Origin: a virus
Lineage: Duplodnaviria > Caudoviricetes
Virus record (IMG/VR): IMGVR_UViG_3300021256_000062
Coordinates: 94,918 to 158,917 of that record
DNA length: 64,000 nucleotides
Direction: 5' to 3' (one strand)
In this document: positions 12,786-36,961 of the stretch, piece by piece
Numbering within the stretch: the first letter of the stretch is position 1
How the letters are laid out: each line of letters opens with the position of its first letter
Made by a program: the position numbers and the translations under genes
The notes under the pieces: generated by a model
The model's input: the letters and a program-made list of their open reading frames with translations, nothing else
Database searches by the model: none
What the model was told of the DNA's origin: nothing

Positions 12786-15725
12786 TTATTTTAAATCTTT
12801 ATCTAAAATTATATCATCATCAGTTAAATCATCTAAATCTAGATAATCATCAACATCAATTTCTTCAATTTCATCATCATCTTCATCTTTAATAATTTTA
12901 ACATTATTTAAATCATAATTATAAATTAAAGTACCATCAATATCATCATTGTACATTGAAATCTCTAAAGTATTACCTTCAGTAGATAGTATGATATCTG
13001 AACTTCCAATATAATCTTCTAATTTTCTCATTAATTCATCATAGAATTCATCATAATCATAAAATTCCCAACCATCTAAATATCTGATTGCCTTTTCTAC
13101 ATTATCATTAAATTTATTTTGTGCATAATTTCTTTCAATTCTTTTTTGTTTCTCTTGGTCATAAGTCTTTATAACTAACACAGGGAACTTTGTATCCCAT
13201 CCAAATAAATCCCCAGCTACCATCATTCTATGAAGACCCTCTTGTCCTGGATAATATGATAAATCAAGAACTGCAATAGGGAATTTCTTCTTCTTATCAG
13301 TGATAACTGTCTTAAGATAATCCAATGTCTTCTTATCATATTCTCTTTGTTGTTTTAAGTCGTTTGCAGTAACTTTCTTATGTTTCTTACTACTGAACAT
13401 ATCTGCACAAGCCTCATAATATTCTTGTGGAGACATTTGAACTATTTCACCAACTAAATTCTTTTTATTCTTATAATAATCAACATCATTACCTAATAAT
13501 AAATCTTTCCATGAACCAGTGGTACCTGTAGTTGATGTATCAAATATATCACTACCATTTACATCTCCTGTACCATAGTCAAAATCATCACTTTCCTTTA
13601 ATTTAGTTCTAAAGTTTTCAATGAACTCTAAACGTTTAGGATTTCCACCTAATACATCAAATAATTTAAAGTTTTTAATGTCTTGATATCTTGAATAGAT
13701 ATATCCATCATCAGTTTTATATTTAAAGTTATAATCATCTCCTACCACATCATATATCTCAAATTCATTAGTATGGTATGAATCAGGACAATAAATAGCA
13801 CATACTTGGTTCTTATCAAAATCATTTACTAAATCAGTACTTAAGTAACCATTTTGATATGCTGCATTTTTCATATCAGTATGAACACAATCATATGCAT
13901 TTGCAACTAAATATAAATTACCTTCAATATATAATCTTTGTGGTTCAGTTTTTGATAATAGGAAATTCTTAACTTGATATGGACTTTCAAACATATATAC
14001 ATCAAAAGCATCTTCATCAAATTTAACCATTTCAGTAAGTGATTCTTTTTTATCCCAATATGAATAGGCAACAGCTAATCTTTGTTTTTGATTTGGATAT
14101 TCTTTTTCAGTTGCACTCATAAATCTTGATATGAAATCTTTTTTAGTTTCATTATCTTTAGGATAAATTTCCAATAATTTACTTTCATTTATGTTATTAC
14201 TATTACTTGGATTCTTATTATCTATTAATTTTATTTGGTTAGGGTAAAAGGTAATGATTTGAGTATCAATACCTGCATTCATCATAGAATTGTATAAAAT
14301 AATTCCATCATAATCTCCCTCGCCTTGAACAGCGTCTATTACATCATAATATGATGTATCATTACTAAAATCATAAGCACCTAATAATGTGAAATACAAA
14401 TCTGGTGTATTTATTCCAAATTCATTGACTATATCTAATTCATTTTCAAAATAATCTTCACCATTGTCGTGTGCTTCTACAAAGTCCCATAACTTATCAT
14501 AGTCTATAATAAAAGGCTTTTCTAAATTTAGATAACATTCTTTTATCTTATTTCCATAGCCTAAAGAGAATTGTTTATTTGGAGTAAAAAATGTAGCATA
14601 TTTAAAAACATCGAAATCTTTATTTGTGGAATGATAACAAACTAATAATCTACCTTGATTATCTCTTACTTTACTATTCTTAAAAAACTCTACTTGCTCA
14701 TTACTAAGTGGGTTTCCTTCGCTATCTACTTCTTGTGATAAGTCTTCATTAAGTTCTTCATTTACAACACAATTATCAAAATCAACCAAACCATAAGTAA
14801 TAACACCACCTTCATCAGCCTTAATGCCGTCATATCCTAGAGATTGAATTAATACATAAAATGGGTATTCTGATGTTATATCGTAAATGTAATTTGAACT
14901 TTCTAACCTAAAACCAAATTGTGAAAGGAATTGTTTTAATTGTGTAGGTGTCATCTCAATTAACTTACAAAAGTTAAGAAATTCTTTGCTGTATTTACCT
15001 TTTACATTCCATATAGATGAACCTATATACCCTACATCTAGCAATTCACATTTAGAAAAATCTATATCTTTACTAAAGACCTTATTACCATATTCTTGAG
15101 CATATTTTTTATTTGGTGTAAACCAAGTAAGTCTATCTTTAGAATTAATTAATTTATCACTATCTTGACCATGATAGACAAGTTCTTCATCTAAACTTGT
15201 ATGTTCACCTACTATGTCAAAGTATCTATCTTCCCACTCATCAAATTGTTTTTCTAACTCATCATAATCTATTTCAGGTATTTCAGTTCTAACAGGTTTT
15301 TTTATCCATCCAGTATATAGAGAATAAACACCATTTGATTTAGCTGGTTGGTTTACATCTTCTACATATAATTCAACTTCTCTACCCTTTACTTTTATTT
15401 CATATTTACTGTTAAATAATGATTTATAGGCATTACAAAGTAATTGCATTATCTTTATGTCATCAGTAGTTCCTAAATCTGCTACTATATGTAAATCAAT
15501 ATCAGACATGTCAGTATAGTTATAATTTGCACTTGAACCTAATAATCTTATATCAACTACATCAAGAGTTAATCCATCTTCTTTTAGGTCATCTAAAAAA
15601 CTATCAGCTATATCTAATAATCTTTCTTTTACATCATCTCTTAATTCATCATCTTCATTCCATAATTTAGGATTAAGTGTATCATTAACTTTTATTTCTT
15701 CATTTAAATTTTTATCTATTTTCAT
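12786..15725 (-). CDS. Polyvalent protein: N-half of a nucleotidyltransferase + 2 ART-PolyVal-like + unknown module + ParB-like domain
   Basis: LNPKLW, GSSANYNY..SDIDLH, ELYVED, GVYS..W; YHG/YHS..FT...A..YG..GYDGI; EGLHR; LxE[ESD] linkers. Confidence 0.75.
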   Translation of the reverse strand: MKIDKNLNEEIKVNDTLNPKLWNEDDELRDDVKERLLDIADSFLDDLKEDGLTLDVVDIRLLGSSANYNYTDMSDIDLHIVADLGTTDDIKIMQLLCNAYKSLFNSKYEIKVKGREVELYVEDVNQPAKSNGVYSLYTGWIKKPVRTEIPEIDYDELEKQFDEWEDRYFDIVGEHTSLDEELVYHGQDSDKLINSKDRLTWFTPNKKYAQEYGNKVFSKDIDFSKCELLDVGYIGSSIWNVKGKYSKEFLNFCKLIEMTPTQLKQFLSQFGFRLESSNYIYDITSEYPFYVLIQSLGYDGIKADEGGVITYGLVDFDNCVVNEELNEDLSQEVDSEGNPLSNEQVEFFKNSKVRDNQGRLLVCYHSTNKDFDVFKYATFFTPNKQFSLGYGNKIKECYLNLEKPFIIDYDKLWDFVEAHDNGEDYFENELDIVNEFGINTPDLYFTLLGAYDFSNDTSYYDVIDAVQGEGDYDGIILYNSMMNAGIDTQIITFYPNQIKLIDNKNPSNSNNINESKLLEIYPKDNETKKDFISRFMSATEKEYPNQKQRLAVAYSYWDKKESLTEMVKFDEDAFDVYMFESPYQVKNFLLSKTEPQRLYIEGNLYLVANAYDCVHTDMKNAAYQNGYLSTDLVNDFDKNQVCAIYCPDSYHTNEFEIYDVVGDDYNFKYKTDDGYIYSRYQDIKNFKLFDVLGGNPKRLEFIENFRTKLKESDDFDYGTGDVNGSDIFDTSTTGTTGSWKDLLLGNDVDYYKNKKNLVGEIVQMSPQEYYEACADMFSSKKHKKVTANDLKQQREYDKKTLDYLKTVITDKKKKFPIAVLDLSYYPGQEGLHRMMVAGDLFGWDTKFPVLVIKTYDQEKQKRIERNYAQNKFNDNVEKAIRYLDGWEFYDYDEFYDELMRKLEDYIGSSDIILSTEGNTLEISMYNDDIDGTLIYNYDLNNVKIIKDEDDDEIEEIDVDDYLDLDDLTDDDIILDKDLK

Positions 15726-15907
15726 ATATCTATCCCTCTCCTAAATTATACAATTTTCAATTATCACATTGACAAATTGTTTTCAAATAATTAACCAATA
15801 CACACATCTCATAGATAGATAAAGAAGATGTATTGTGGTTTTCAATTACATCTTCTATAATATTACTATCTAAATACTTATTAAATTTAATAGTATAATC
15901 ATTTTAA

Positions 15908-16273
15908 TTAATCATCTTGTTTTTTGAATGGATATAATTTATTACCTGGTTTTTGAATAATATGTGCAGATGTATATATTCCAGATGAATCATCTTCTTT
16001 CATATCTTCAGGTTCATATGTAATTATATCTATTCCTTTTTGTTTAAAGAATTTAACTATCTCATTATCAAAGAATTGATGGTCATGGATTTTATCTCCC
16101 TCATCAATATGTGCAATCAAAACAAAGTTAGAATTATCTCCATCACTTTCAGCTGTTACACTGTAGTATTTAGGTATATCTAATTCTTTAAAATATGTTT
16201 CGATTTCTTTTGGTAATGTTTTAATTTCACTCTTTGTAAAAGCTGGATTACTATCTTCTTTCGATTCTTTTAG
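15908..16273 (-). CDS. Probable -1 frame C-terminal extension of the 16270-20352 gene (track ORF 15908-16120 is its distal part)
   Basis: Open frame from the A9 run, starting LKESKEDS...; no convincing start or RBS of its own. Confidence 0.6.
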   Translation of the reverse strand, partial: LKESKEDSNPAFTKSEIKTLPKEIETYFKELDIPKYYSVTAESDGDNSNFVLIAHIDEGDKIHDHQFFDNEIVKFFKQKGIDIITYEPEDMKEDDSSGIYTSAHIIQKPGNKLYPFKKQDD

Positions 16274-19200
16274 TTTTTTTTTACGCTAACTGATTCATTA
16301 AATTGAGATATACTATATTTATTATAAATTGATTTACCTCTTCTTAATAGTTTCTTTGCTTCTTCACTATTATCTTTCTTTAAATCAATTAAGACATCCC
16401 ACATTGTAATAAACCAATCATCTATTACTTCTGGGTCATCTAATGTATCTAAATCAATACTATTATTGTAGTAATCATCAACATCTCTCCACCATTTTCT
16501 TATCTTTAAGATATCTGGTTTTGAGAAATTAAATAATTCACTATTTTCATTCAATGATTCATTTGTATTGTCTTTATCTACATATTTTTTAACTTCTTCA
16601 ATACTATTAAAATAGATTGGTTCATATTGATTATTTCTTCCTATTCTAGATAGAGGTCTATTTGAATTAGTTGACCAAATAGTATACTTATCTCTATCTT
16701 CATCATAAACAATTACTGCATTTTTATAAGTTTCTTTATATTCAACTCCCCAATCATTATATACTTGAATATCTCCATCACAATCTTTATAAGTATGTCT
16801 TGATTCATTAACTTTCTTCTTATTGATTGCATTATCAACCTCATTGTATAAATCAGATAGGTCTACAGCTCTAGGGTCATCTTCATCTAACCCTTCAGTT
16901 TCATTAATTATATCAGTAAATATATCTCTCAATTCATCTAATGAATAATTATTTAAATTCTTTCTAATATTATCAATATCTAATGATTCATCTATTGAAC
17001 CATATTTACCTTGTTTAACTAATTTTAAATATCTATCGAATGCTTTTTTAGCATCTTCTTTTGTTGCATATTCTTTTTTTACAACAGTTTTATAAACATC
17101 ATTTGGTCCTTTTTCATATACTCCTACTGAATAATAACCACCTTGATATCCTTTATCCCATCTATATTCTACATTAAATTTTCCAACATTTTCTTGTTTT
17201 AATGTAACTGATGATTCAGTTAAACTTTCTTCAATGATAGGGTCTCCAAGTTCACTTACAAATTTAGTAGTATCTTTACCAAATAAGTCTTCAACTACAT
17301 CTGGAGTAGTTAATGAACCATCTTCAACGCCCTTCTTAATATCTTCTAATTCATCTTCTTTTATTCCTGCAGCTTTTAGGAAATTGTAGAATGGTTCAAA
17401 TGCACCATCTTTCCATCCAGCTTCATCCCAGAATTTAGTTATGAATTCTTTATCACCTAATTTGTAAGTTATCTTATTATGTTTAGGGTCATAGATTGCT
17501 TCTACATTTCCTTTTGTAGATTTATCCTTTGACTCATCTAAATCATCAGTCTTATTTATATCAATAAAGTATCCATCAGCTGGATTACCACCATAGTGAT
17601 TATCATCAATATTTAATTCTTTTGCAATGGCTAACATTTCTTTTCTATTTGCACAAGAAACATATCCTTCATCTTCTAAATAAACACTGTTGTCATATTT
17701 ATCTACAACTTCTTTTACTTTATCAATTGATACGTTATTACTTTCCTTAAGACTTTCCATAAACCATTCACTAGGTATATCTTCAGGTTCTTGAACATCA
17801 TCTGGACTTAATTTATGGAAATTATTTACTCTAACATAATTTCCTTTTTGTAATAAATCCCAAACATATTCAAATGCCTTATCTGGGTCATCAAATGTTT
17901 CTGAATTTGCAAGACCTCTATATTTATCATCATAGTAACCATCAACAGTGAATTTAGTTGGTTGTGAACCTACTACTTGTTCTTTTGCTTTCTTTGACCA
18001 TTTATTAGAATAGTCATCTAAAGTACTTTCTTCTAATTCTTTACCATCAAACTTGTAATTTAATGCACGAATAATATCTCTCTTTTCAAGACCATATCTC
18101 TTCATTAATAATTGAATAGAATAATTATCACCTAATAAAGAATCATTATATCCTTTACTTCTCTTAATATCATCAATTGCATGGTCTAATGTAATATCAT
18201 ACTTATTATCAGTCATTGCTAGTAAATCCTTAACAGGAATTGAAGATTCTTTTAAATTTTCCCAAAGATTACTTTCAGGTGTTACTTCTTCTATATCAAT
18301 TTCAATTTTTGGTGAAAGATTACGTTTTGCATATTCAGAGTTGAGTACTGCCATTGCTTTTTCCCTAGTATCATATACTTTTGCATCAATTAAAGAATCA
18401 TCTTCTCTATTTCTATAAACAACTGCATACTTTACACTATCTTTATAATAATCTTCGAAATCTTCTTTTAAACTTTCATCTAATTTACAATCAGTATAAA
18501 CTTGACAAATATAATTTGCTAAATCTTTTACACTATATTCATCATTTGCACCATAAGTATCTTGGTCTAACTCTAATGTGGTATTATTAGAAAAACCATC
18601 ATTAATTCCATCAATCAATGCTAAATCATTATAATATAGTTGAAATGCTAAATCATAACCTCCTCTAGCAATTTTCCAAGAACCTTGTTTTGCAAATTTT
18701 CCATTAGAATTGTATCTATCTAAAACCTTTTTTAAACTTGCTTTCTCTGGAATATTGTTTTTACTTTCCTTTAAACTTTCATCTAAATTTAATTCTACTT
18801 TAAATAATCCTTTTTTAGTAGTTCTATTTTTACCATAAGCTTTTGCAAGTAATTTCCAAGCATTTTCAGCGTCATCATCATCTACAAATTCAAATGTAGT
18901 TCCTTCAACATCAAATCTAATATTTGCATTATCTAAAATTCTATAGGCATCTTTTAATAATTCATTGTAGTTAACTGATTCTTTTAATTGTGCCTTTGGA
19001 ATCCAAATTTTAGTCATCTTCTTAACTTTATCAGTTCTTTCTTTATTCCATCTATAGTAAGTAACTGAAACTAATAATCCCTTATCAGTTTGTTCCATAA
19101 CAGTTCCTGTTGGTTCTATCTTTGTTGCATAGTTAAAATCGGCTTTTTCATCTCTACTTAACCATCTACCACCTTTTGCTAATTTCTTTAAGAAACTAGT

Positions 19201-20352
19201 TTCATATTTTGATAAATCAATCTTTTGTCCCTTTTCATAATTCTTTGATTCTTCTACAACTTGTGGTAACTCGTTTTTATTAGGTGACTTTCTAATTTTC
19301 TTATTATCAACATAGTCATAATGATATTCTATTGGTTTTACATCAGCACCTTTTAATCTACTTGCAATCATTAAAGTTAAATCTTCAAAATCTTCCCAGA
19401 ACTTATATGTTGCACAAACATCTGACCAATAATCATGTTCACCTTGAGTTGCAAATGGTAACATATCTTCAATATCAATGATTAATTGATTTTGTTCATC
19501 AATTGTATCTTCATTGTCTACATTATCAAAATATTCACCAACTAGTTTAGATAATCTTTTCCACTTATTTAAGAATTCTTTGTATTTATTCTTATCTACA
19601 TAATTCTTTTTTACTGATTCTAAAAATTCAGGTTTTTCAAATGGGTTATCAGTTTGTTGAACTAATAAGTCTAAACTTCTACCATCTTCAGTAGAATATG
19701 CATCTACAACTTCAGTCATTTCATAGTAAGCATCATCATAATCATTGAATCTTTTTGCTTCACTCTTATTAGTTGTAAATGTGTAGTAAGGTTCATCATT
19801 AGTTACATCATCAGCTAGGTACATACCATTCTTAATATTGTCATATAAACCATTATCACTATCAACTATAATGTAATAGTAATTGTATTCATCACTTTCT
19901 AACCATTCTTCAGCTTTCTTTAATTTATCTGGGTCAGATGTAATGAATTTTACTTGTTCTCCATATTCACCTACGTAACCAAGTTTACCATCACTAAACT
20001 TTACAAAATCAGGTGCATCTTTAGCAACTACATAATCTAATGCAGTTAAGTAACTATCAATACTATATTTTACATTACCATCAATATCAGTATATTTGCA
20101 CAATATTTCATCAAGGTCTATATCATTATCTATTAGAATTTGTTCTTCTTTTTCTTGCATATTTTGTTCAGGATAATCAATACCATCATCAGATTGATAT
20201 TCTTCTCCTGAGATAATTATTTCATAGTCAAGTGGTTTATCTACATCTTCACTTATCATACCACCACCCATAATGTTATTGAAAGTATTCATATTTCCTA
20301 ATGGGTCACCAAACATATTTATGCCGTTATACTTTTCTTTCTTATTTTTCAT
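16270..20352 (-). CDS. Large acidic modular protein, putative internal head polyprotein
   Basis: 1360 aa; small modules separated by ~15-20 LKES/LDES/VNES-type linkers; late motif upstream. Confidence 0.75.
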   Translation of the reverse strand: MKNKKEKYNGINMFGDPLGNMNTFNNIMGGGMISEDVDKPLDYEIIISGEEYQSDDGIDYPEQNMQEKEEQILIDNDIDLDEILCKYTDIDGNVKYSIDSYLTALDYVVAKDAPDFVKFSDGKLGYVGEYGEQVKFITSDPDKLKKAEEWLESDEYNYYYIIVDSDNGLYDNIKNGMYLADDVTNDEPYYTFTTNKSEAKRFNDYDDAYYEMTEVVDAYSTEDGRSLDLLVQQTDNPFEKPEFLESVKKNYVDKNKYKEFLNKWKRLSKLVGEYFDNVDNEDTIDEQNQLIIDIEDMLPFATQGEHDYWSDVCATYKFWEDFEDLTLMIASRLKGADVKPIEYHYDYVDNKKIRKSPNKNELPQVVEESKNYEKGQKIDLSKYETSFLKKLAKGGRWLSRDEKADFNYATKIEPTGTVMEQTDKGLLVSVTYYRWNKERTDKVKKMTKIWIPKAQLKESVNYNELLKDAYRILDNANIRFDVEGTTFEFVDDDDAENAWKLLAKAYGKNRTTKKGLFKVELNLDESLKESKNNIPEKASLKKVLDRYNSNGKFAKQGSWKIARGGYDLAFQLYYNDLALIDGINDGFSNNTTLELDQDTYGANDEYSVKDLANYICQVYTDCKLDESLKEDFEDYYKDSVKYAVVYRNREDDSLIDAKVYDTREKAMAVLNSEYAKRNLSPKIEIDIEEVTPESNLWENLKESSIPVKDLLAMTDNKYDITLDHAIDDIKRSKGYNDSLLGDNYSIQLLMKRYGLEKRDIIRALNYKFDGKELEESTLDDYSNKWSKKAKEQVVGSQPTKFTVDGYYDDKYRGLANSETFDDPDKAFEYVWDLLQKGNYVRVNNFHKLSPDDVQEPEDIPSEWFMESLKESNNVSIDKVKEVVDKYDNSVYLEDEGYVSCANRKEMLAIAKELNIDDNHYGGNPADGYFIDINKTDDLDESKDKSTKGNVEAIYDPKHNKITYKLGDKEFITKFWDEAGWKDGAFEPFYNFLKAAGIKEDELEDIKKGVEDGSLTTPDVVEDLFGKDTTKFVSELGDPIIEESLTESSVTLKQENVGKFNVEYRWDKGYQGGYYSVGVYEKGPNDVYKTVVKKEYATKEDAKKAFDRYLKLVKQGKYGSIDESLDIDNIRKNLNNYSLDELRDIFTDIINETEGLDEDDPRAVDLSDLYNEVDNAINKKKVNESRHTYKDCDGDIQVYNDWGVEYKETYKNAVIVYDEDRDKYTIWSTNSNRPLSRIGRNNQYEPIYFNSIEEVKKYVDKDNTNESLNENSELFNFSKPDILKIRKWWRDVDDYYNNSIDLDTLDDPEVIDDWFITMWDVLIDLKKDNSEEAKKLLRRGKSIYNKYSISQFNESVSVKKN

Positions 20353-20636
20353 ATTATTTCTCCTTAATAAATAAAATCTATTAACTATATAATTTAGCTA
20401 TTATATTCTAATAATTTATTATTCTATTTAACTTATATTACTCTTTATTACTATTTATTAATATTATTTTATAGATAGTATAATACTATCTAGTTGAAAA
20501 AGAGATGAAAGTCAAAAAGAAAATAAATAAAAGAAAAAGGAAAGCAGAGAAAAAGAATATTGTAATTTTACAAAATCTTTAGTATTAAGTTTTAACTATT
20601 TAATAAAACTTGCTACTATTTGCAAATTCCTATTAT

Positions 20637-20665
20637 ATTATACAATTTTTTAATTTACTTGTCAA
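20637..20665 (-). promoter_or_regulatory. sigmaA-type promoter (others at 25593-25621, 52825-52853, 55328-55356, 59914-59942)
   Basis: TTGACA-17-TATAAT in each case. Confidence 0.8.
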
Positions 20666-20779
20666 CTCTTTAGATATTTAAATAAAAATATCCCCTATTT
20701 TCAATCTTTATCTAAATGTAGTATAAGTTATCACTTTTTAATAAAAAATGAAAATAAGGGCAAATTTAATATGGTTTAA

Positions 20780-21004
20780 TTAATATTTAACTTCTTTCCA
20801 CCAATAATAACCATTATCTCTAAAGAATCTAAAATGTCTTTTAGTAGAGAATGAATATATCTCAACTGTAAACTCGTTTAATGGTGGTTTAAAATCTTCT
20901 TCAATCTCTTTTATTGCATAATGATTATCATTGTACTTATAAACAAATAAATCTCCAGGATTTAATTCTACAAATAAAAAATCGGATAATTGTAAAGTAT
21001 ACAT
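20780..21004 (-). CDS. Hypothetical protein
   Basis: 74 aa ORF with AAGGAG RBS. Confidence 0.6.
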   Translation of the reverse strand: MYTLQLSDFLFVELNPGDLFVYKYNDNHYAIKEIEEDFKPPLNEFTVEIYSFSTKRHFRFFRDNGYYWWKEVKY

Positions 21005-21039
21005 ACTACTCTCCTTAACTATCCTTTCTTTTATTTTCT

Positions 21040-21315
21040 TTACATTAATTTTATTACTTTTGCATAATCACAAACAAATTCAGTTTCATTTTGTGATATT
21101 ATTTCATTTGGTTCACATAAATATATAACAGGATTACCACCAAATTTACTACAACATTTTTGTGCATAATTATATGCAGATATTGGAGAGATGGTTAACC
21201 ATACAAAATTATCTTTACCTACTCTAAAATCTTCTCTCAATATGTTTGTTTCAGTTGGTGGTAATATTTCTGCTAATTTACCAAATATATCAGATGTTCC
21301 ATGATATAAGTTCAT
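21040..21315 (-). CDS. Small ADP-ribosyltransferase-fold protein (Arr-like)
   Basis: LYHGT ... VWLT.S..SAYNYA ... GNPVIYLCEP. Confidence 0.6.
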   Translation of the reverse strand: MNLYHGTSDIFGKLAEILPPTETNILREDFRVGKDNFVWLTISPISAYNYAQKCCSKFGGNPVIYLCEPNEIISQNETEFVCDYAKVIKLM

Positions 21316-21325
21316 ATTAGATTAC

Positions 21326-21559: not shown

Positions 21560-21635
21560 TTAAGTTCTCCTTTAAATTATCATTGCTACTATAGATAGAA
21601 CTAAAACTGATGTCAATAACATTAATTTAAAAATA

Positions 21636-27460: not shown

Positions 27461-28981
27461 TTATTCTTGTGCAGAAATATTAATAACTTGTGGTTCTTCA
27501 ACAATCTTACCAGCGATTAATAAGTCCTTATTTAATAATTGTAATGCATAAACAGAACTATAACCTTTAGTATTTGTTCCATCTGGAGTTTCTAGAGATG
27601 CAGTTGGAGTGATTGCTAAGAATGGAGCCCATACAGCAGCACTTGTTCCTAGGTCATTTCCATTAACACCTAAAACATATCTATCAGCTGGCATATTTGG
27701 AGTGATATATACTTTCATTCCATTATATGTACCAAAGTAGTAAGGACCATTTACAGATGCTAAGTTTGCAGCTTGTTTGAATCCTTCGCATAGAGGTAAA
27801 ATTGACATAAATTCAGTACCTGCTAACATATAGTTAGGAGTGAATTTTTGAGTTGCTTCGTATACTTTTTGTTGACCTTGTAATACTTTTCTAGCAAATC
27901 CAGCAAAGTGTTGAGCTAAGCTGATTCCTGTAGGAACAGCAATATTGAATGTTAGAGAGTCATCAAGTCTTGCATTTTTAACTAATAGATTAGTTACTTC
28001 TACGTCTGTTTCATATTTTAAAGTATGAATTGCAACTTGTTCTAATCTTGCACCTAAATTTTCACCATATTCTTTCTTATATTGATAAGCAGCCATTTGT
28101 GAATATTCGATAGCAATCTTTCTTGCTTCGCAAGTTACATAAATACCTTTTTGTTGAACAGTGATGTAAGGAATTTCATGTTGATTAATTGCAATGTTAT
28201 TGTATAAGTAGTTAACTTTAACAGGTGCAGTTACACCAACTAATGCAGTATCAAATACGATTGCAGCAGGTTCTTCATCATAGATGTCTCCTGTTACTGA
28301 TTTTGCTTTCTTATAACCATAAGTAATTGTACCTACTTTTGTAGCTGTACCAGCATCAACGATAAATCTACCAGCTACTCCTTCAATGTGTCCATTTGCA
28401 TCTTTTTGTTCAGCTGTGAATACTTTAGATGCGAATGTACCTTGATAGATTTTACCATCTCCACCATCGAAGAATGTGTTATCTCCAATTGTGAATTCTA
28501 CAGTACCAGGAATAATTGGGTCCCATTTTAATGCTAAAGTTTTATTATCTTCACCTAATGTAGCATTTTCAATAACTGTTTGGCTAGTGTAATTAGGGTC
28601 AACTTTACCATTTCTGAATGGGTTAACAATCATATCACCTACTGAAGATTCACCTTTGTTAGATGCTTTTGAGTATTCATAGTAAGTAATATAACCATTG
28701 AAATTGTCGATAGGTTTAGTTAATACTAAATCTGGAGCGATAAAGTTAGGTAATGCTAAAGTGGCAACGTCCATAACGAATTTCTTCATCATACCAATGT
28801 CACTTCTTTGAGTTGAAACTGATTGGTCACCATAAGTTTCAGTTAAATATTTGTTTTGGTTTTCAAGGATTTGTGCAGTAATGATTTTTCTATCCATAGG
28901 GATAACAGCACCATTATTATACTTTGCATATAATCCTTCAGAGATTGCTAATCTCTTTTTATACTTTTCTAATAAAGTCAT
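27461..28981 (-). CDS. Major capsid protein (T4 gp23-like)
   Basis: ILENQ..L.E, PNFIAPDLV.TKP, EARKI..EYS, G.YNGMKVY..P, AVWAPF; position after the protease. Confidence 0.85.
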   Translation of the reverse strand: MTLLEKYKKRLAISEGLYAKYNNGAVIPMDRKIITAQILENQNKYLTETYGDQSVSTQRSDIGMMKKFVMDVATLALPNFIAPDLVLTKPIDNFNGYITYYEYSKASNKGESSVGDMIVNPFRNGKVDPNYTSQTVIENATLGEDNKTLALKWDPIIPGTVEFTIGDNTFFDGGDGKIYQGTFASKVFTAEQKDANGHIEGVAGRFIVDAGTATKVGTITYGYKKAKSVTGDIYDEEPAAIVFDTALVGVTAPVKVNYLYNNIAINQHEIPYITVQQKGIYVTCEARKIAIEYSQMAAYQYKKEYGENLGARLEQVAIHTLKYETDVEVTNLLVKNARLDDSLTFNIAVPTGISLAQHFAGFARKVLQGQQKVYEATQKFTPNYMLAGTEFMSILPLCEGFKQAANLASVNGPYYFGTYNGMKVYITPNMPADRYVLGVNGNDLGTSAAVWAPFLAITPTASLETPDGTNTKGYSSVYALQLLNKDLLIAGKIVEEPQVINISAQE

Positions 28982-28994
28982 AATATTTCTTCTC

Positions 28995-30512
28995 CTATAA
29001 TAAATTTTTTAATTCTTCTAAACCAGAAACATCATCAGCTAAAGATGGTTCTTCATACTGACTTTCTTTTGATTCAGTAATTCTTACTCTTGGTTTCTTA
29101 CCAACGTTAAATGGTAATTTACCTATACGTAAGTTATATTGTTGTAAACTTTCACATATCTTATCAATGTCATCAAGTGTAAAATCATCTTCTAATCTAT
29201 TTTTAATTTCACTAGAACTGATTCCCAACATTGTTGCCTTTGAATTAATATATTTGTTTACTACTGATTTAATATCATTCTTGTATTTTTCAGTCAATTT
29301 ACGACTCTTATTTAAAGATGATTCTAATTCAGCACATTTCTTATTATTAATTTCAGATTGTTCTAATTTTTCCTTTAAGGATTTAATTTCATTTTGAGCA
29401 TTTTTTAATGATTCATTTAAGGTATTAATCTTACTATCTCTACTAGTTGTAGATTCAGTTAATGTCTTATTTGATTTAACACTCTCATTTAATTTCTTTC
29501 TTAAAATACTAATGTTAGAATTTTTCCCAATTAATTCAATATCCTTTTGTTTTAGTTGTTCTTGTAAAGATTGATTCTCTTGTTTCAAGTTTTTACTTTC
29601 AGATAACTTAGCACTCAAACGAACTGATGTCTTTTTGTATCTATCAAGTTCTTCTTCTAAACTATTAACTTTAGTATTACTAACTGCCAATTGTTCTTGA
29701 AGTTCTTGTACTTGTTTTTCTAAAGCCACTCTACTTCTTAAAGATTCAGTTAAACTCTTAACTAATGATTTAGAATCAACATCATTGACTTCCTTATCTT
29801 GGTTAACAGTCTCTTTAGTATCTTCAACTTTTTTATTTATATTATCACTCTCTTGAGTGTTAATATCTTCATTTAATTTCTTTTCTACTGCTTTAATTGT
29901 ATTTTTCATTGATTCCTTAACTGAAGAATCTGCATCATCTACTAATTTAGCAAGTGATTCTCTTAAAGATTTACCATTTAATGATTCTTTAACATATTTC
30001 ATTCTTGCCTTTTTAACAGCTGGTAAAATTACAGCATCCCAACAAGTTAAATCAAATGTATCAGGTTCAACACTTGAGTTGCCATCATAATCTTCAGTTA
30101 CATCTCCATTACCTCTTGAACTAACACCAATTACAGTTCCATAGTCACATAATGTTTTTAGGATACGACCATTAGGTAAGTCTAGTATATGGAATTCCCC
30201 ATATAACATACCATCATCACCAATTTTTGGTGTACTTGCTAAACACATACATGCTTCTTGTGGTTTTATCTCTTCTCTATCTGTAGGGTGTTCTAGTTCA
30301 CCTAGTACAGCTTTGTTTTGTAATTGTTCTTGGAAGATTGGGTCATTAATTGCTTTCTCCCATGCTTCTCTTGGATATAGTCTACCATTTCTAGTTGGCT
30401 GTTTAGTATCAGCAATAGGACCATATAATGTACCTAATATTCCTCTTTCTTTTTGTTCTTCTGGAGATAATTTTGTATATTCAAATTTATTTCCTACAAA
30501 TGTTTCTAACAT
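28995..30512 (-). CDS. Prohead protease fused to a coiled-coil scaffold (gp21+gp22-like)
   Basis: RNGRLYP, GELEHP, LPNGRIL, IGVSSRGNG, WDAV..PA; long coiled coil rich in LxES; start 30512 after GGAGG. Confidence 0.88.
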   Translation of the reverse strand: MLETFVGNKFEYTKLSPEEQKERGILGTLYGPIADTKQPTRNGRLYPREAWEKAINDPIFQEQLQNKAVLGELEHPTDREEIKPQEACMCLASTPKIGDDGMLYGEFHILDLPNGRILKTLCDYGTVIGVSSRGNGDVTEDYDGNSSVEPDTFDLTCWDAVILPAVKKARMKYVKESLNGKSLRESLAKLVDDADSSVKESMKNTIKAVEKKLNEDINTQESDNINKKVEDTKETVNQDKEVNDVDSKSLVKSLTESLRSRVALEKQVQELQEQLAVSNTKVNSLEEELDRYKKTSVRLSAKLSESKNLKQENQSLQEQLKQKDIELIGKNSNISILRKKLNESVKSNKTLTESTTSRDSKINTLNESLKNAQNEIKSLKEKLEQSEINNKKCAELESSLNKSRKLTEKYKNDIKSVVNKYINSKATMLGISSSEIKNRLEDDFTLDDIDKICESLQQYNLRIGKLPFNVGKKPRVRITESKESQYEEPSLADDVSGLEELKNLL

Positions 30513-30628
30513 TATAATACCTCCCAAATTGGTTGTGTATATAACTATATCACTGAATTAGTTACTCTAATTCATTTAATTTAGCTATATTATTTTTTTA
30601 AAAAATTTTAAATTTTTCACAGTTTTCA

Positions 30629-31084
30629 CTATTTTATTTGTTCTAGTGCCTTTAAATCAGCCTTAATTAATCTTAATAATTCCATACATTTAGTAATATC
30701 ATATGTTGTAAAGTAATTATTAAGTACTTTTGTAATATCACTTGCTCTAGAATGTTTTAAGAATAATGTTTTATTATCATCTAACTTTTTAGCAAATAAA
30801 AGAATCTGAGTTAGTAACGCAGACAAGGTAGTTAATACCTCATCTGGTTTCTCTATCTCTTTAACTATATTAATATAAATATTTGATTTTTTCTTGTTGT
30901 AATTTTTTCTTAATAGTTCATAGAAATTTAATACTTCTAATGGTCTATTTTTATTAATAAATTTTAATACACTTAAATCCACATTGGATTTACTTGCAAC
31001 TTTTTCAATTAATTCTCCTGCTTCACTATTTCCTTGTTCTTCTAGTTCTGCAAGTAATAATATGCAATCAGTATTTGTAATCAT
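30629..31084 (-). CDS. Hypothetical protein in head module
   Basis: 151 aa between portal and protease. Confidence 0.7.
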   Translation of the reverse strand: MITNTDCILLLAELEEQGNSEAGELIEKVASKSNVDLSVLKFINKNRPLEVLNFYELLRKNYNKKKSNIYINIVKEIEKPDEVLTTLSALLTQILLFAKKLDDNKTLFLKHSRASDITKVLNNYFTTYDITKCMELLRLIKADLKALEQIK

Positions 31085-31110
31085 AAAATTATCCTTTCAT
31101 TAAATCAATC

Positions 31111-32994
31111 TTAAACTTCTTGGTTATTATAATCTACACCAAGTTCAGCGAATGATGGAAGATAGTCTTCTCCACCTTGAGATTGTTCTATTTCAACTTG
31201 TCCTTCTTCCCCTGTAGGTTCTTGTTCTTGTGGTTCTTCTCCACCTAATCCTAGTTCTTGACCTATATCAGCCATTGGAGAGTTTCCACCAGAAGGACCT
31301 CTTCCACTTGGACCACTTGGACTTTCATTTCCACCTTGTGGATTTGGTTGTTGTGGTTGTTGTTTTTCTTGTTCTTCAACATACTCAATTTCATCTTGGA
31401 TATATTGAATAACATCAGGACTGTTAGTGATATCTTGCATTAAAACTTTAACGATTTTTAATCTTGTAGATTTTCTATCAATATCTCCTAATACATCCAT
31501 AGTATCTCTTAACATACCAAGTGCATTTGTTTGTGCTTCTCTTCTATCAATTTCTTCCTTTGTAACTGGAGCTTGCATTCTTAATGTAAAGTTATTTACA
31601 TAAGATAATAATCCTCTATCAATTAAAAGGATGTTAATTAAATCTCTAGTCATTGATATAAATGCTTGTTGAATTCTTTTAATTCTCTTAGCATATTTAG
31701 CTGAAATTAATGTTAATGATGTACCACCATTGAATCCTGTTTGGTCATCAGTAAATCCTACATATGACTTTGGAATACCTGTTGATGAGAAGAATCTATC
31801 TCTAAAGTATTCAAGGTCTGTTAATTGTTTAGGGTCATATTCTCCACCTACATTTGATACTGATAAATTACCAATTGTTCCATGTGTAGGTACATAAATA
31901 TTATTCTCTACAGGTCCTGGATTTGTATAGTTACCACTAGATATTCCAGTATCTATAGATGTCTTTTGTTCCATCATTGATTTAATACCTTGTAAATGGT
32001 TTGCAATCATTTCTTTAGGCATATCACCGACTTCTACTTGAATTACCCTAATTAAACTTGATTTAGTTAATCTTGTTAAAATAATTGCATTCTCTAGAAG
32101 TGTCATTTCTCTCCAAGATTTGAACCAATCATATAACAAAGATTTACCTCTTTTAACATCATAAGAATGAGAATTAGTACCAGTCTTATAATCATCATCA
32201 TTATCAAATAAATCTACAGTTTCTTTAGTTCTTCCTGTATCATCAAATAGATATCCATGTACATAATCAGTTGCACTAAATACATTGATATCTCCTTTAG
32301 CTACTTTATAGTTTTGAATAAAGTTATATTCAGTTTGATTATAATCATTTACATTTAAGGTATTAAATACATTATATGGAGCATTAATATATCCTTGTGT
32401 TTTACCCTTACTAGTAAGTTCAAACATCTCAGCAGGATTTGATACTTTCTCTACGAAATTAACATAATGTTCACTTTTATCTTCAATGTGTAAAATAACA
32501 TCTTCATGTAATCTACTCTTCTTATTTATAGCGTCATTGTCAAATATACTACTTTCTTCATATTCACTTTCTTTAAATAGTTTTAGATATAAGTCACCAT
32601 ATTTGATTAATGAGTTAACCCATCCATATGCATTTTCATTTATTTGTAAAGTAGATAATAAGAATGTAACATATTTTACTACATCCGCATCTTCTGATTC
32701 TACCCACATTACATTTCCATCTGGGTTAGTTTCAGTAGCATCTTCAGCATATGACTCAATGATAGATGCCACAGTACCATCTTGTGACATCATATCAATT
32801 AATCTATATACATTCTCTCTATTTTGTGCTACTGATAGGAAATTCTCTAATTCACTTAAATTAAGAGTATCATTGATTGCTGCATTAACAATATTTTCAG
32901 CAAAATGCCCTTCAGTATCCATTCCTACATTTACAGGTTCTTTAGGCACTGCTGTTATTTTCTTACCTACTAAATCATTTTCTTTATTTTCCAT
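31111..32994 (-). CDS. Portal protein (T4 gp20-like)
   Basis: LIKYGDLY, LLENAIILTRL..S..IRVIQVEVGDMP, DLEYFRDRFFSSTGIPKSY, YAKRIKRIQ. Confidence 0.88.
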   Translation of the reverse strand: MENKENDLVGKKITAVPKEPVNVGMDTEGHFAENIVNAAINDTLNLSELENFLSVAQNRENVYRLIDMMSQDGTVASIIESYAEDATETNPDGNVMWVESEDADVVKYVTFLLSTLQINENAYGWVNSLIKYGDLYLKLFKESEYEESSIFDNDAINKKSRLHEDVILHIEDKSEHYVNFVEKVSNPAEMFELTSKGKTQGYINAPYNVFNTLNVNDYNQTEYNFIQNYKVAKGDINVFSATDYVHGYLFDDTGRTKETVDLFDNDDDYKTGTNSHSYDVKRGKSLLYDWFKSWREMTLLENAIILTRLTKSSLIRVIQVEVGDMPKEMIANHLQGIKSMMEQKTSIDTGISSGNYTNPGPVENNIYVPTHGTIGNLSVSNVGGEYDPKQLTDLEYFRDRFFSSTGIPKSYVGFTDDQTGFNGGTSLTLISAKYAKRIKRIQQAFISMTRDLINILLIDRGLLSYVNNFTLRMQAPVTKEEIDRREAQTNALGMLRDTMDVLGDIDRKSTRLKIVKVLMQDITNSPDVIQYIQDEIEYVEEQEKQQPQQPNPQGGNESPSGPSGRGPSGGNSPMADIGQELGLGGEEPQEQEPTGEEGQVEIEQSQGGEDYLPSFAELGVDYNNQEV

Positions 32995-33004
32995 TATTAT
33001 TCTC

Positions 33005-35044
33005 CTACCAAACCATTATTCCATTTTTAACATTCATATAGTTCTTTGCAGCTTCTAACCTATCTTGTTTAGTAACTTCTTTTTCTCTATTGAATAAATG
33101 GGTATTTAATAATGTTTCTTTAAGTTCATCTTCAAAATTAACTACATATTGTTGTTTAACTTGATTTACATATGAGAATGGATTATTTGCTTCTAAAATA
33201 GTTTTTAATGATTCACCATAATCATATGCATATTGTTCCGCGTGTAGAGATGCATTATATAGAGAACCTGTTATACTATCTATGGCATCCTTTGAACCAT
33301 ATTTACCATTTTCAGGGTGCTCTATTTTACCACTAGATTCTCTTTCAAGTCCTAATACTTCTTCAGTTAAGAAATCACAATCTTTATATACTTCTATTCT
33401 CTTGTCATATAAAGTTGATTTAAAGTATGCATAAGGTAAGCATTGTTTTGCTTTAGAATCAATAACATCCACTGATATTTGTTTTACATCAAAACCATCA
33501 GCTATAAGTTGTTGTTGTATTTGAGCTGAGTTGTAACTATCACAACTTACTCCTTTTACTGCAAAACCTTGTTCTTTTAACCATCTAATAAACATTCTAG
33601 ATTTATCAAAAGATAACTCATATCCTTTAGGTGCTTTAACTGATACACTGAATGCAACCTTAAAATATAATTCTCTAGAACTTTCTTCTCCCTCTACTTT
33701 AGGTTTTTTACCCATTACATATACACCTGCAATACCTGTCTTGTCTCCTGATTTTGATAAGTCGAGATGTACATATAAAGGTTTAGATTTTAACTCTAGA
33801 GGAACTCTTGATAAATCAAAGAAATCTTTGTATTGTGTATCATCATTTGTTCCTACTTCAATTATTTCTTTTACAAATGGATTCTTGTAGGTATCTACTT
33901 TAACTTCATTCCATCTAACACCTGAAATATATTTTAATCCAGATGTAGATGATATACCTGCAATATCCATTAATGCACCATCAATGTTTTCTTGGAAATT
34001 CTCTAAATAACCAATAGGAACTTCTAATATATTGTATCCTCTTGCCCTATAGAATGATAATTCTTCTTGTGTAACTGATAAAGGTAATAATTCATTTGCT
34101 AAGAATTTATTACCAATTGCAACAAAGAATTTAACTGCACTATCTTTTCTTGAGTCTACAACCCATTGTGGCTCATCTACAATTAATGTATTCTTACTTT
34201 CATTTTTCTTTTTAGTATCAATATATTCATCCAAGAATGATTGGTCACTGTTCTTACTTGATGCAATAATATTTAATGTAGGTAAGTAAGTACCAGTTTC
34301 TCTTTCTCTCATAAATCTTGATTTCATTCTGGCATCAATTTGAGATACTAATTGTTTATATTTCTTCTTTAATTTTTCAGTATCATTGGTGATACCCCAG
34401 TTAACTTCATCTGAGAAGTTAGCAAATACGGCACGTCCAATTACTTGGTTATTACTTGATGCTGTAATTAATTCAATGTGTTTATTTGGTTTATATTCTA
34501 GATTAGTTGTACCACTCATTGAACCATGACTCATAAACCATTCACTAGATAGAATCATTTGATTCATTTTATCTAGTGCAACACCTTTGGCATTTTGAAT
34601 AGTAATATTCATTAGAGATATTGTTATTTTATCAATAGGTTGCATTCCATAATAAAGATATGGGTCTTTTAAACATAACAATCTATATAACATATATAAT
34701 AAACTAACTACTGCAACAGTTGATTTACCAATACCAATCGCACCTGTTAAGATGATAGTATTATAAGCTGTTGTAGTATTTGTAGGGAATATCTCTTTTA
34801 ACTTATCTTCCCAATAAGGGAATAATGTAAATCTTCCATCAGCATCATAAAGTGCATTTCCTAAATATTTTCTATCATGTAAAAATGTATGTATATCTAC
34901 AGGTATTTCATCATAGTCAGAATATTTAAGAGTGTCTAATAATTCAGATGAACCTTCTGTTGCCATTTGGTTTAATATCTTTAATACATAATCCTTTTCT
35001 TCTGGAGAAAGGTTATTAAATTTTTCTATTTTAGTATAATCCAT
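33005..35044 (-). CDS. terL: Terminase large subunit
   Basis: TGAIGIGKS, FSDE, HLDLSKSGDKTGI, KIEHP...SKD..D. Confidence 0.9.
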   Translation of the reverse strand: MDYTKIEKFNNLSPEEKDYVLKILNQMATEGSSELLDTLKYSDYDEIPVDIHTFLHDRKYLGNALYDADGRFTLFPYWEDKLKEIFPTNTTTAYNTIILTGAIGIGKSTVAVVSLLYMLYRLLCLKDPYLYYGMQPIDKITISLMNITIQNAKGVALDKMNQMILSSEWFMSHGSMSGTTNLEYKPNKHIELITASSNNQVIGRAVFANFSDEVNWGITNDTEKLKKKYKQLVSQIDARMKSRFMRERETGTYLPTLNIIASSKNSDQSFLDEYIDTKKKNESKNTLIVDEPQWVVDSRKDSAVKFFVAIGNKFLANELLPLSVTQEELSFYRARGYNILEVPIGYLENFQENIDGALMDIAGISSTSGLKYISGVRWNEVKVDTYKNPFVKEIIEVGTNDDTQYKDFFDLSRVPLELKSKPLYVHLDLSKSGDKTGIAGVYVMGKKPKVEGEESSRELYFKVAFSVSVKAPKGYELSFDKSRMFIRWLKEQGFAVKGVSCDSYNSAQIQQQLIADGFDVKQISVDVIDSKAKQCLPYAYFKSTLYDKRIEVYKDCDFLTEEVLGLERESSGKIEHPENGKYGSKDAIDSITGSLYNASLHAEQYAYDYGESLKTILEANNPFSYVNQVKQQYVVNFEDELKETLLNTHLFNREKEVTKQDRLEAAKNYMNVKNGIMVW

Positions 35045-35125
35045 AATGACACTCCTTTCTATATATTATACAATAATGTTTACTATTATTGACAAAAAGT
35101 GTTATTTTGTTTACTATAGTAAACA

Positions 35126-36961
35126 TTATTTATTTTCTTCAAGGTTCTCTAAACTCATTTTTTTAGATTGTAATTTTGTTTTTAAATTTTTAAGATTATC
35201 TAGATATCCCATATTTCTAAATTCTTTAAATACTAAATTACCAATACCAAATTCACCATCTTGTTGAATAGATTGTTGTCTTAATGCATATATATCATCA
35301 ATTAATTTATCTATCTCATCTAGTTGTTCTTGTTCTTGTGAATCTAAATCTTCTTTAACATCTATGATAGTATTTTGTGGAGTGATAGATTCTATTTGAT
35401 TATGAATAATCTCATCTAACTCATCTACTGAATTAAACTTTTGTCTATCTACTTCTTTACCATCTAATATGTTTTTATTAAATCCTTTATAAGTTGCAAC
35501 TGTATTGTAATCTAAATTAGCTCTAATGAAATAATAAATATCATTATCTTTAGTTAATTCTTTTTTACCACTATACACTACAAATCCATATCCTTGACCT
35601 GGATTATCATATGTCCATACACCATATCCTTCTCTTTGTATCTTTTCAAGTAATTCATCTAATGCATACTCATCTATTTCAGTAACATCAGTATCTACCT
35701 TTTTAATTTGATAAGATTCTTCTTGAATAAGTGGTCTACTACCATCACTTGACCATCCATATCTTGTTCTTATTTTATTAGGTTTAGGTAAAACTTTATA
35801 TAGTGGACATTCTTTAAAATTGCAATGTCTTGATGTTATTACTCCAAAGTCATAATAATATTCAGTATCATAATCATCTTCAGGAATTTTAGCACCATAT
35901 GTATCATCAATTAAATGTGTAGGTGCAAATATTAAATAGAATAGTTTATCTTCATCTTCAGCTTCATCTAAATAACCACTTACATTATATCTATTTACAT
36001 CTAATTGAGGTGGATAGTAATAGTTATCAATTGCAGCATCAATCATATTTCTATGAATTATATTATTATGATAACATACCATATATTTTTTAATATTATC
36101 ATCATATAATATTCTTAATGAATCTGGTGTACTTTTAATTCTATCAGCTACTTGTGGAGCACTAGTTGTAATTAAAATTCTAGAACCTGTATCTTCATCA
36201 TAAATATAATCTTCATTTAATGATTCAGTCATACTTTCATGTAATCCTAGTTCTTTTAATGTCTTATCTCCACCTTGTCTATGTATAGGTTCAATACCAT
36301 TTTGTTTTAGAATCTCATTTACTTGATAATCATCTAGTAATTTATCCACTTTAATTTGACCTGTAATAACCCAAGGAACTGTGTCTGGATTAGGATTAGT
36401 TCTATACTTATAAAAACCTTTTACAGGCAATTTTTTAAGTCCTGCAAGGGAATGTTGATATTTATCAGATTTATAAGTAATGACATTTCCATTATCATCT
36501 ACTTTAGTTCTCATATATCCTTGTTCATCAGCTTCAGGTTGATAATCAATATCCATTGCATATTCACATTCTGCCCATACAAAATCTTTAGGAAATTCGT
36601 ATTCACCTGTTTCTTTATTTAATCTATCAAATTGTTTTGCTCTAGGGATGTCACCAAGGTGCCAGCCTGGGCGATAAGCAAGTACTCCAGAATTATTTGC
36701 TCTTTTAACTTGAGGTCTACCTGTCTTTGAATTACCTGCAAATTCTCCTTCTTCTGCATCAATCCATACTCCAACAGGTGTATCCTTACCACCACTATTT
36801 GCAACCATAGGTGGATATAATTTACCATTTTTAACTCTAAATACTTTATAAGCTCTACCTGTTTTAGTAGGGATGTTTGAATTAGGAGAGACAGCCTCTT
36901 TAATTTCATCATCAGTTGATAACAATCCCATATCTATATATTTCTTATCTTCTCTATCCAT
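35126..36961 (-). CDS. Polyvalent protein ending in the C-terminal half of a nucleotidyltransferase
   Basis: AYKVF..KLYPP..LAYRPGWH module; module shared with the 12786 gene; C-term IYALRQQSI..DGEFGIGNLVFKEFRNMGY. Confidence 0.7.
   Translation of the reverse strand: MDREDKKYIDMGLLSTDDEIKEAVSPNSNIPTKTGRAYKVFRVKNGKLYPPMVANSGGKDTPVGVWIDAEEGEFAGNSKTGRPQVKRANNSGVLAYRPGWHLGDIPRAKQFDRLNKETGEYEFPKDFVWAECEYAMDIDYQPEADEQGYMRTKVDDNGNVITYKSDKYQHSLAGLKKLPVKGFYKYRTNPNPDTVPWVITGQIKVDKLLDDYQVNEILKQNGIEPIHRQGGDKTLKELGLHESMTESLNEDYIYDEDTGSRILITTSAPQVADRIKSTPDSLRILYDDNIKKYMVCYHNNIIHRNMIDAAIDNYYYPPQLDVNRYNVSGYLDEAEDEDKLFYLIFAPTHLIDDTYGAKIPEDDYDTEYYYDFGVITSRHCNFKECPLYKVLPKPNKIRTRYGWSSDGSRPLIQEESYQIKKVDTDVTEIDEYALDELLEKIQREGYGVWTYDNPGQGYGFVVYSGKKELTKDNDIYYFIRANLDYNTVATYKGFNKNILDGKEVDRQKFNSVDELDEIIHNQIESITPQNTIIDVKEDLDSQEQEQLDEIDKLIDDIYALRQQSIQQDGEFGIGNLVFKEFRNMGYLDNLKNLKTKLQSKKMSLENLEENK

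Follow-up and report, generated by a model that had tools for sequence, protein, structure and literature searches.

Core and C-terminal module of the phage nucleotidyltransferase family phrog_36119 are divided between two polyvalent proteins flanking the head genes

The usual view of polyvalent cargo proteins is that of self-contained domains strung together. The stretch of phage DNA analysed here (the window; 64,000 nucleotides, positions 94,918 to 158,917 of IMG/VR record IMGVR_UViG_3300021256_000062) raises the question of whether two such proteins, P0001 and P0002, can instead carry the parts of a single nucleotidyltransferase, and whether these parts still work together. The positions of the two pieces, called here the N-piece and the C-piece, and of their surroundings are given in Table 1.

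Table 1. Location of the two nucleotidyltransferase pieces, their carriers and the neighbouring genes in the window.
Feature	Position	Strand	Remarks
P0001, polyvalent protein, 979 aa	12786..15725	(-)	Pfam ART-PolyVal, E 1e-13
Shared module copy, P0001 residues 566-696	13638..14030	(-)	profile E 1.4e-16
SLDEE junction after the N-piece, candidate L-x-E site	15183..15197	(-)	P0001 residues 177-181
N-piece, Pol-beta nucleotidyltransferase core and helix alpha5	15195..15725	(-)	P0001 residues 1-177, extreme N-terminus of the ORF
Head module between the pieces: gp23-like capsid protein, protease, 151-aa protein, T4-like portal, large terminase	27461..35044	(-)	
T4-type prohead serine protease (S77)	28995..30527	(-)	Peptidase_S77 E 2.5e-17, phrog_207 E 7e-39
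P0002, polyvalent protein, 611 aa	35126..36961	(-)	module limits from BLAST HSPs and PHROG
C-piece, clade-specific leader and three-helix module	35129..35350	(-)	P0002 residues 538-611, extreme C-terminus of the ORF
VKED junction before the C-piece, candidate [LIV]-x-E site	35348..35359	(-)	P0002 residues 535-538
Shared module copy, P0002 residues ~245-400	35762..36229	(-)	homologous to P0124, P0130, P0134, P0135
1032-aa polyvalent protein next door: DUF3990/PARP-like, two ART-PolyVal, SprT-like zincin peptidase	36961..40059	(-)	

The initial annotation had read the two pieces as halves of one protein. The motifs that it quoted are all present in the two translations, and the pieces do tile one family of ~245 aa, as seen with the phrog_36119 profile and with tblastn. 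In the PHROG profile search, residues 6-156 of P0001 correspond to positions 14-167 of the profile (E 2.8e-26) and residues 538-604 of P0002 to positions 181-247 (E 3.1e-9), the profile being 247 positions long. When the whole 158,917-bp record was scanned in six frames, these two phrog_36119 matches were the only ones, and no intact copy with core and C-module in one polypeptide was found, the parts lying 20 kb apart. P0001 carries LLGSS, SDIDLH, and ELYVED, which represent hG[GS], the DxD pair, and the third carboxylate of the neighbouring strand, and which align with the family-invariant residues G64, S65, D76, D78, and E120. The match of P0001 to PF01909 lies close to the cut-off of 21 bits, with 23.2 bits in the genome scan and 20 bits, just under it, in a whole-protein hmmscan. 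The N-piece keeps every N-side invariant and the C-piece keeps the invariants Y, R, F, K, R, and L, while P0002 has no match to a Pfam family at E<=1 and no nucleotidyltransferase core. Another nucleotidyltransferase of this genome was considered as a partner of the C-piece and rejected, being a complete protein of the RlaP family.

In 36 phage records, both halves are found by tblastn head to tail in one gene, for example at 524558-524941 and 525071-525241 in Lak-A1 and at 8416-8880 and 8176-8352 in S-H34, and this gene is annotated as one CDS of 237-250 aa. Single-chain members of the same family as the window pieces occur in the T4-like cyanophages S-H34, S-CRM01, and DSL-LC02/03, in Caulobacter phage Cr30, in the Maribacter phages Molly/Colly, and in the Lak megaphages. 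Their core motifs and their C-terminal R..GE..NL.FK.LRN.GYL align residue for residue with the pieces. These members are free-standing ORFs of 235-265 aa, often among early or replication genes, whereas in the window the family is found as two pieces on different polyvalent proteins, one on either side of the head genes. In G001, the closest relative in which the family is intact, residues 750-988 of a polyvalent protein make up the whole domain without interruption. Near-identical genomes were not found, given that a megablast search with the region in 50,697 phage records returned a 150-nt grcA-like match only. In IMG/VR, full-length P0001 has no close relatives and the relatives of P0002 share its N-terminal domain only, four such phage records of 37-46 kb being without phrog_36119. 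A search seeded by the N-only protein P0081 returned unsplit relatives only.

The module boundaries of both carriers were drawn from BLAST HSPs. In P0001, the N-piece is followed by an ART-like region (~183-330), ART-PolyVal (355-507), and small, shared, and C-terminal modules, while in P0002 a phrog_30118 domain (36-230), the shared module, and an unassigned domain (~433-535) precede the C-piece, the end of which is separated from the downstream terminase gene by 82 nt. The module that the initial annotation had noticed in both genes is real, as seen from the match of P0001 to a profile built from P0002 residues 244-410 and homologues, with P0001 excluded; direct pairwise BLAST of the two copies gave E 0.07 only. 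Its reading of the carriers as polyproteins is likewise supported, both being polyvalent proteins beside head genes. Polyvalent proteins from phages and from conjugative elements have been described as strings of effector domains encoded next to virion genes, for which processing and delivery along with the DNA have been proposed (Iyer et al. 2017, PMC5512222). The likeness lies in the ART-PolyVal, zincin/SprT-like peptidase, and Pol-beta nucleotidyltransferase domains found there as well, and P0001 combines a nucleotidyltransferase with ART-PolyVal, with a SprT-like peptidase encoded adjacent to the carriers and virion genes between them. In the parts of that survey available to us, the minimal nucleotidyltransferase is described mostly from conjugative elements of Firmicutes, fused to ArdC-N, and no case of one enzyme split over two such proteins appears.

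The same split layout is found in a diverged, syntenic relative, G006, which uses code 4 (TGA read as Trp) and has an identical gene order in the head module. There, the gene that precedes the terminase has the C-piece at its end, and 23 kb downstream another gene begins with the N-piece. Identity to G006 is 69-70% for the N-piece and 78-80% for the C-piece, with 43-59% for terminase, portal, protease, and capsid protein, and the dN/dS values are 0.21 for the N-piece and 0.23 for the C-piece versus 0.38-0.50 for capsid, portal, and terminase. Purifying selection acts on both pieces. All invariant residues (23/23) are kept in the present phage (G000), in G006, and in the independently split G007, and four derived substitutions are common to G000 and G006. 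The N-only clade comprises 16 tips, all of them N-only (support 96), and is mirrored by the C-piece clade, in which 18 of 19 members are C-only, and the C-module is missing in 13/13 cluster representatives with at least 62% identity to the N-piece. In the four IMG/VR records with separated parts (G000, G006, G007, and G043), the same record always contained the partner, and this includes fragments with a completeness of 11-26%. Judging from these comparisons, the split is old and conserved across a group of rumen and gut phages, and for this reason the two pieces probably still cooperate.

The boundary at which the pieces tile the family is exactly the loop between helices alpha5 and alpha6, and this arrangement is inherited. 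Unrelated domains, of at least five families, are also inserted at this hinge. The model of the intact domain is one compact unit (pLDDT 90.6, pTM 0.81), in which the break coincides with the sole loop between helices 158-177 and 182-206; the N-piece alone was modelled by AF2 with pLDDT 87 and pTM 0.78. Helix alpha5 is strongly conserved in N-only proteins, and both broken ends bear conserved extensions that are specific to their clades. The family is also recurrently broken at a second point, profile position ~107-115, which lies within the catalytic core; 3 A-pieces and 13 B-pieces represent this break, with adjacent genes in G043. The core fragments that result from it are unlikely to fold alone. 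Across the relatives, the same family is found cut at two fixed points, with insertions and in permuted order. Residues 12-144 of the intact-homologue model align with the minimal nucleotidyltransferase 2rff (Z 7.3) and also with MNT, TENT5, and CD-NTases, the Z values being middling, and Foldseek and VIA aligned essentially the core only. For the C-module, no lead came from ESM Atlas, Pfam, or a profile search against PDB sequences.

Conservation with G006 stops just before SLDEE, and conservation with the C-only clade starts at VKED. The tail of the N-only clade reads D[IV]VGEH and continues with ELEE-like motifs, and [LIV]xE stands exactly before the C-piece in 15/16 clade members, the sequences upstream of it being unrelated. 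Clustering of [LI]xE at the module junctions gave enrichment P values of 3e-5 and 1e-4, which are post hoc and come from linkers that are rich in Glu; as background, 26% of random 12-residue windows contain [LIV]xE. Absence of the motif from the hinges of unsplit proteins was dropped as an argument, given that 86/142 of them have it. The leader L-x-E-D-I-E-K-H before the core is likewise doubtful as a cleavage site, since free-standing proteins have it too, and it may belong to the fold instead. In the head module, the tail of the S77 protease is coiled-coil and scaffold-like, with many L-[NT]-E-S motifs, and L-[TN]-E closes the propeptide of the capsid protein, before the mature part, being conserved in three phages. 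Release of the pieces by the T4-type prohead protease followed by reassembly, which the initial annotation had proposed, is plausible as a hypothesis, also with non-covalent association of the pieces, the indications for release by the protease being circumstantial.

On balance, we lean towards an ancient fission of a two-module phrog_36119 nucleotidyltransferase in rumen and gut phages of ~150-160 kb with T4-like heads, the pieces of which would be packaged, cut, and reassembled. The core with alpha5 would have become the N-terminus of one late polyvalent protein and the C-module the C-terminus of another, upstream of the terminase. From the gene positions and by analogy with T4 Alt, both polyvalent proteins would be packaged in the head, and the S77 prohead protease or the neighbouring SprT-like peptidase could cut them at [LIV]-x-E. 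Once freed, the pieces would restore one enzyme by non-covalent association, and this enzyme may enter the host with the DNA and nucleotidylate some host target. A stricter form can be put forward only tentatively, namely that of an obligate two-fragment enzyme with inactive precursors, the pieces of which would be freed by proteolysis, join through the clade-specific end extensions, and be active in the mature particle or the newly infected cell only. As an observation that runs counter to reassembly, the N-piece has all catalytic motifs and resembles minimal nucleotidyltransferases of ~110 aa that act alone (2rff, MNT).

A different reading of the same genes is that the N-piece is a self-sufficient minimal nucleotidyltransferase and the C-module an autonomous accessory, for example for substrate binding or targeting, brought to their present places by ordinary domain shuffling. 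This is possible but rather doubtful. It would agree with the complete set of catalytic motifs on an N-piece that folds alone in silico, with structural neighbours of the core that are stand-alone minimal enzymes, and with the variety of unrelated domains at the hinge. The C-module, which has 1096 cluster representatives at E<=1e-3, is moreover without the core in the same protein in 71/144 of its best, newly classified matches, where its partners include a YafQ-like toxin and leucine-rich (BspA-type) repeats. Nonetheless, among the genomes examined the C-module never occurs without the core on the same record, the intact model is a single compact body, and alpha5 and the broken ends are strongly conserved in N-only proteins. 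Given that the second break divides the core itself, independent modules cannot account for that break.

It is very improbable that the pieces are functionless, decaying remnants of recombination between polyvalent genes. Such proteins are mosaics that freely swap modules, which fits remnants of this kind, but the invariants are complete, the dN/dS values lie under those of capsid, portal, and terminase, and the pieces have persisted through a clade that even switched its genetic code. Covalent rejoining by a split intein or other trans-splicing, or an assembly artefact, is less probable still, given that no point in support of either was found. On the coding strand the C-piece comes first and the N-piece second, neither P0001 nor P0002 contains an intein or Hint family at E<=1, an ART-like domain follows the N-piece in frame, and unrelated domains precede the C-piece. 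The artefact that the initial annotation had named as a possible refutation is ruled out by the recurrence of the layout in independent assemblies, namely in G006, P0269 (99% identity), and P0271 (a 152-kb contig).

What has been kept here over long evolution is a small enzyme in two fragments on two different cargo proteins, which suggests that cargo polyproteins can also bear enzyme parts that must meet after processing. If true, this would be a natural case of protein-fragment complementation in a virion and a simple means of silencing an injected enzyme until maturation. Should the obligate two-fragment reading be true, the breaks at two hinges would point to complementation as a general design principle of cargo polyproteins. 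For annotation, it is a warning that the missing half of a domain that looks "truncated" in a phage polyprotein may be encoded at another place of the genome.

In T4, Alt and the internal proteins are taken into the head and undergo trimming by gp21, the propeptide of Alt being 7 residues long (PMC9026906). The present phage is similar in its T4-type S77 protease, gp23-like capsid protein, gp20-like portal, and predicted ADP-ribosyltransferase cargo, and its short N-terminal leaders, which end in [LIV]-x-E, are comparable to the Alt propeptide. The T4 cargo proteins are single enzymes, unlike the putative split cargo described here. A minimal Pol-beta core with a separate helical partner, fused or encoded apart, is also found in MNT-HEPN and kanamycin-type nucleotidyltransferases, and the core matches the MNT structures 8xeo (Z 6.3) and 7ae9. 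Unlike in MNT-HEPN, the C-piece has only ~60 aa and no histidine, and therefore no Rx4-6H HEPN motif, P0002 has no match to a HEPN family, and there is no toxin-antitoxin gene pair. The virion RNA polymerase of the giant phages phiKZ and SPN3US is also split into several polypeptides, which are assembled and carried in a T4-related head for infection (PMC5694885); this is a large multisubunit enzyme with genes of its own, whereas in the present phage the fragments are embedded in polyvalent proteins.

The window comprises the final 64 kb of a 158,917-bp IMG/VR phage record rated 94% complete, and every gene of the region lies on the minus strand, with a G+C content of 25-32%. The two pieces of the nucleotidyltransferase are carried by P0001 (the N-piece, a Pol-beta core with helix alpha5) and by P0002 (the C-piece, a three-helix C-module). 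The interval between these genes encodes the large terminase, a T4-like portal, a protein of 151 aa, an S77 prohead protease whose tail is a coiled coil, and a gp23-like capsid protein. Immediately upstream of P0002 is the gene for a protein of 1032 aa that combines PARP-like, ART-PolyVal and SprT-like peptidase domains. Given this head-gene setting, the ART-PolyVal domain of P0001 and the adjoining multi-domain protein, both carriers are regarded as polyvalent proteins in the sense of Iyer et al. 2017 (PMC5512222).

Coordinates of the carrier genes and of the domains discussed in the text
Feature	Window position	Strand	Description
P0001	12786-15725	-	979 aa; polyvalent protein, bears ART-PolyVal
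P0002	35126-36961	-	611 aa; polyvalent protein
Shared module, P0001	13638-14030	-	~135-150 aa
Shared module, P0002	35762-36229	-	~135-150 aa
phrog_30118 domain	36274-36856	-	P0002 residues 36-230, N-terminal
Capsid propeptide	28830-28981	-	first ~50 residues of capsid protein; ends in conserved L-[TN]-E

The initial annotation had proposed that the two genes hold the halves of what is normally one protein, and this is borne out by the profile of phrog_36119 (247 positions), whose positions 14-167 match P0001 6-156 and positions 181-247 match P0002 538-604. Both halves match the same gene, head to tail, in 36 phage genomes, where its annotation is a single CDS 237-250 aa long. In the alignment, one short linker of the family contains both the end of the N-piece and the start of the C-piece. 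All the motifs quoted in that annotation are present in the translations, with SLDEE at P0001 residues 177-181 and VKED at P0002 residues 535-538, and the module that it had seen in both proteins is real; this module matches no Pfam or PHROG family, and P0134 bears two copies of it. Beyond P0001 and P0002, the whole 158,917-bp record contains no further phrog_36119 match. The genome has just one other Pol-beta enzyme, a complete RlaP-family protein (RNA-repair-associated; 356 aa, G000:C1:7873-8943, minus strand, locus L133 274-1344), which lies outside the window and far from both pieces.

Among the records examined, G001 is the closest relative in which the copy is intact: residues 750-988 of a polyvalent protein of 1127 aa form the undivided domain, which has 43% identity to the N-piece and 56% to the C-piece. 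AlphaFold2 models this domain confidently (pLDDT 90.6, pTM 0.81): an alpha/beta core is followed by a helix (158-177), a loop of four residues and three helices across 182-237, and the break in the window falls in that loop. The core has structural neighbours at Z 6-7 among minimal nucleotidyltransferases, MNT antitoxins, TENT5, TUTases and CD-NTases; the structure search with this model gave none for the C-module, which also matched nothing by sequence or language-model look-up. Modelled alone, the N-piece of the window has a confident predicted fold, with a slightly less confident final helix.

The same gene order and split are found in G006, a 43-kb fragment in which the C-piece forms the final 72 residues of the gene preceding the terminase and the N-piece, 23 kb downstream, the first ~180 residues of a protein of 1612 aa. 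Given that independent assemblies carry the same architecture, the split is not an assembly artefact. Between the two phages the N-piece is 70% and the C-piece 80% identical, versus 43-59% for terminase, portal, protease and capsid protein. The N-piece has a dN/dS of 0.21 and the C-piece one of 0.23, whereas the portal, the capsid protein and the terminase reach 0.38-0.50; these values are usable as a comparison only since dS is near saturation. The two pieces retain 23 of 23 invariant family columns, and four derived substitutions are common to both phages. In a set of 5.8 billion proteins, the 13 cluster representatives with at least 62% identity to the N-piece all lack the C-module, while matches below 53% identity are unbroken or carry an insert. 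In the core tree the window lies inside a clade of 16, all with the core only (support 96), and in the C-module tree inside a clade in which 18 of the 19 members have the C-module only (support 83, from only 56 columns). These comparisons indicate that the split is inherited and maintained.

As judged from the sequences, the family breaks repeatedly at fixed points. The best 80 IMG/VR loci with a C-module comprise 74 that are contiguous, three with a 140-180-aa insert at the hinge (the loop after helix alpha5) and three with the partner elsewhere. Hinge inserts belong to at least five unrelated families (P0154, P0193, P0224, P0243 and other insert-type relatives), and one inserted domain has a zinc-ribbon-like CPxCG...CPLCD motif. 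Core-only proteins stop at the same helix, give or take a few residues; G007 (149 kb, 99% complete) has the two parts in successive polyvalent genes, the core in the first and the C-module in the second, and in P0145 the C-module immediately precedes the core in one protein. A second break, at profile position ~107-115, cuts the core itself and is represented by 16 proteins in databases (3 first pieces and 13 second pieces, the latter all starting at positions 96-111). In G043 (IMGVR_UViG_3300021255_002340, 3344-6845, locus L132) the core is broken at position ~114, with the first piece in a 912-aa ORF and the remainder plus the C-module in an adjacent 245-aa ORF.

Pieces produced by the second break are probably not domains in their own right, and this speaks for complementation in trans within the family; the partner piece is on the same record in all four records with non-contiguous parts. 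It is predicted, with somewhat better than even confidence, that the two pieces reassemble into one enzyme. The main competing explanation, in which the core needs no partner and the C-module is an independent accessory, draws on the 71 of 144 classified best C-module matches (about half) whose protein contains no core, some of them joined to a YafQ-like toxin or leucine-rich repeats; we consider it rather unlikely. Decay, artefact or covalent rejoining, even taken together, appear highly improbable.

The T4 protease specifically prefers Leu or Ile two residues ahead of Glu. T4-related prohead proteases cleave after Glu within a short motif and remove both ends of the packaged ADP-ribosyltransferase Alt (PMC9026906, PMC5694885). 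In the window's phage, G006 and G001, a conserved L-[TN]-E just ahead of the conserved capsid protein body is a likely site of maturation cleavage by which the protease motif could be calibrated; the prohead protease tail contains many L-[NT]-E-S. In the C-only clade, [LIV]-x-E stands exactly at the start of homology in 15 of 16 members, regardless of the upstream sequence. Members of the N-only clade share the conserved tail D[IV]VGEH, after which ELEE mostly follows, and have short leaders that terminate in [LIV]-x-E. In P0001 and P0002, [LI]xE sites concentrate at module junctions. This evidence for release is not given much weight, since the motif is common (26% of 12-residue windows taken at random and 86 of the 142 unbroken hinges), the junction intervals were picked post hoc, and the SprT-like peptidase is an alternative candidate processing enzyme. 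Cleavage at these candidate sites is likely.

Pol-beta nucleotidyltransferases, polyvalent proteins and T4-type head cargo are all components of known kinds. A limited literature search found no description of one small enzyme long kept as two fragments on separate cargo proteins flanking the head genes, with mirrored clades and fixed break points.

Among entries P0004, P0006, P0143 and P0342-P0367, unbroken members of the family carry a fusion to MazF or YafQ-type RNase toxins or, in a 646-aa group, to an M23 peptidase that includes a peptidoglycan-binding domain; P0143 combines a YafQ-like domain with the C-module only. These RNase and cell-wall hydrolase fusions give no clear pointer to the substrate. 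The phrog_30118 domain of P0002 is 56-61% identical to proteins from nine smaller IMG/VR records (10-46 kb); the nucleotidyltransferase family is absent from all four of these that were searched, three of them rated complete, and therefore this domain moves widely among phage types. G006 (IMGVR_UViG_3300028805_000213, loci L108-L110) needs TGA to be read as Trp, which raises its summed ORF length from 6745 to 10967 aa and its longest ORF from 513 to 1612 aa; given that the window's phage uses the standard code, these two related phages have different genetic codes.
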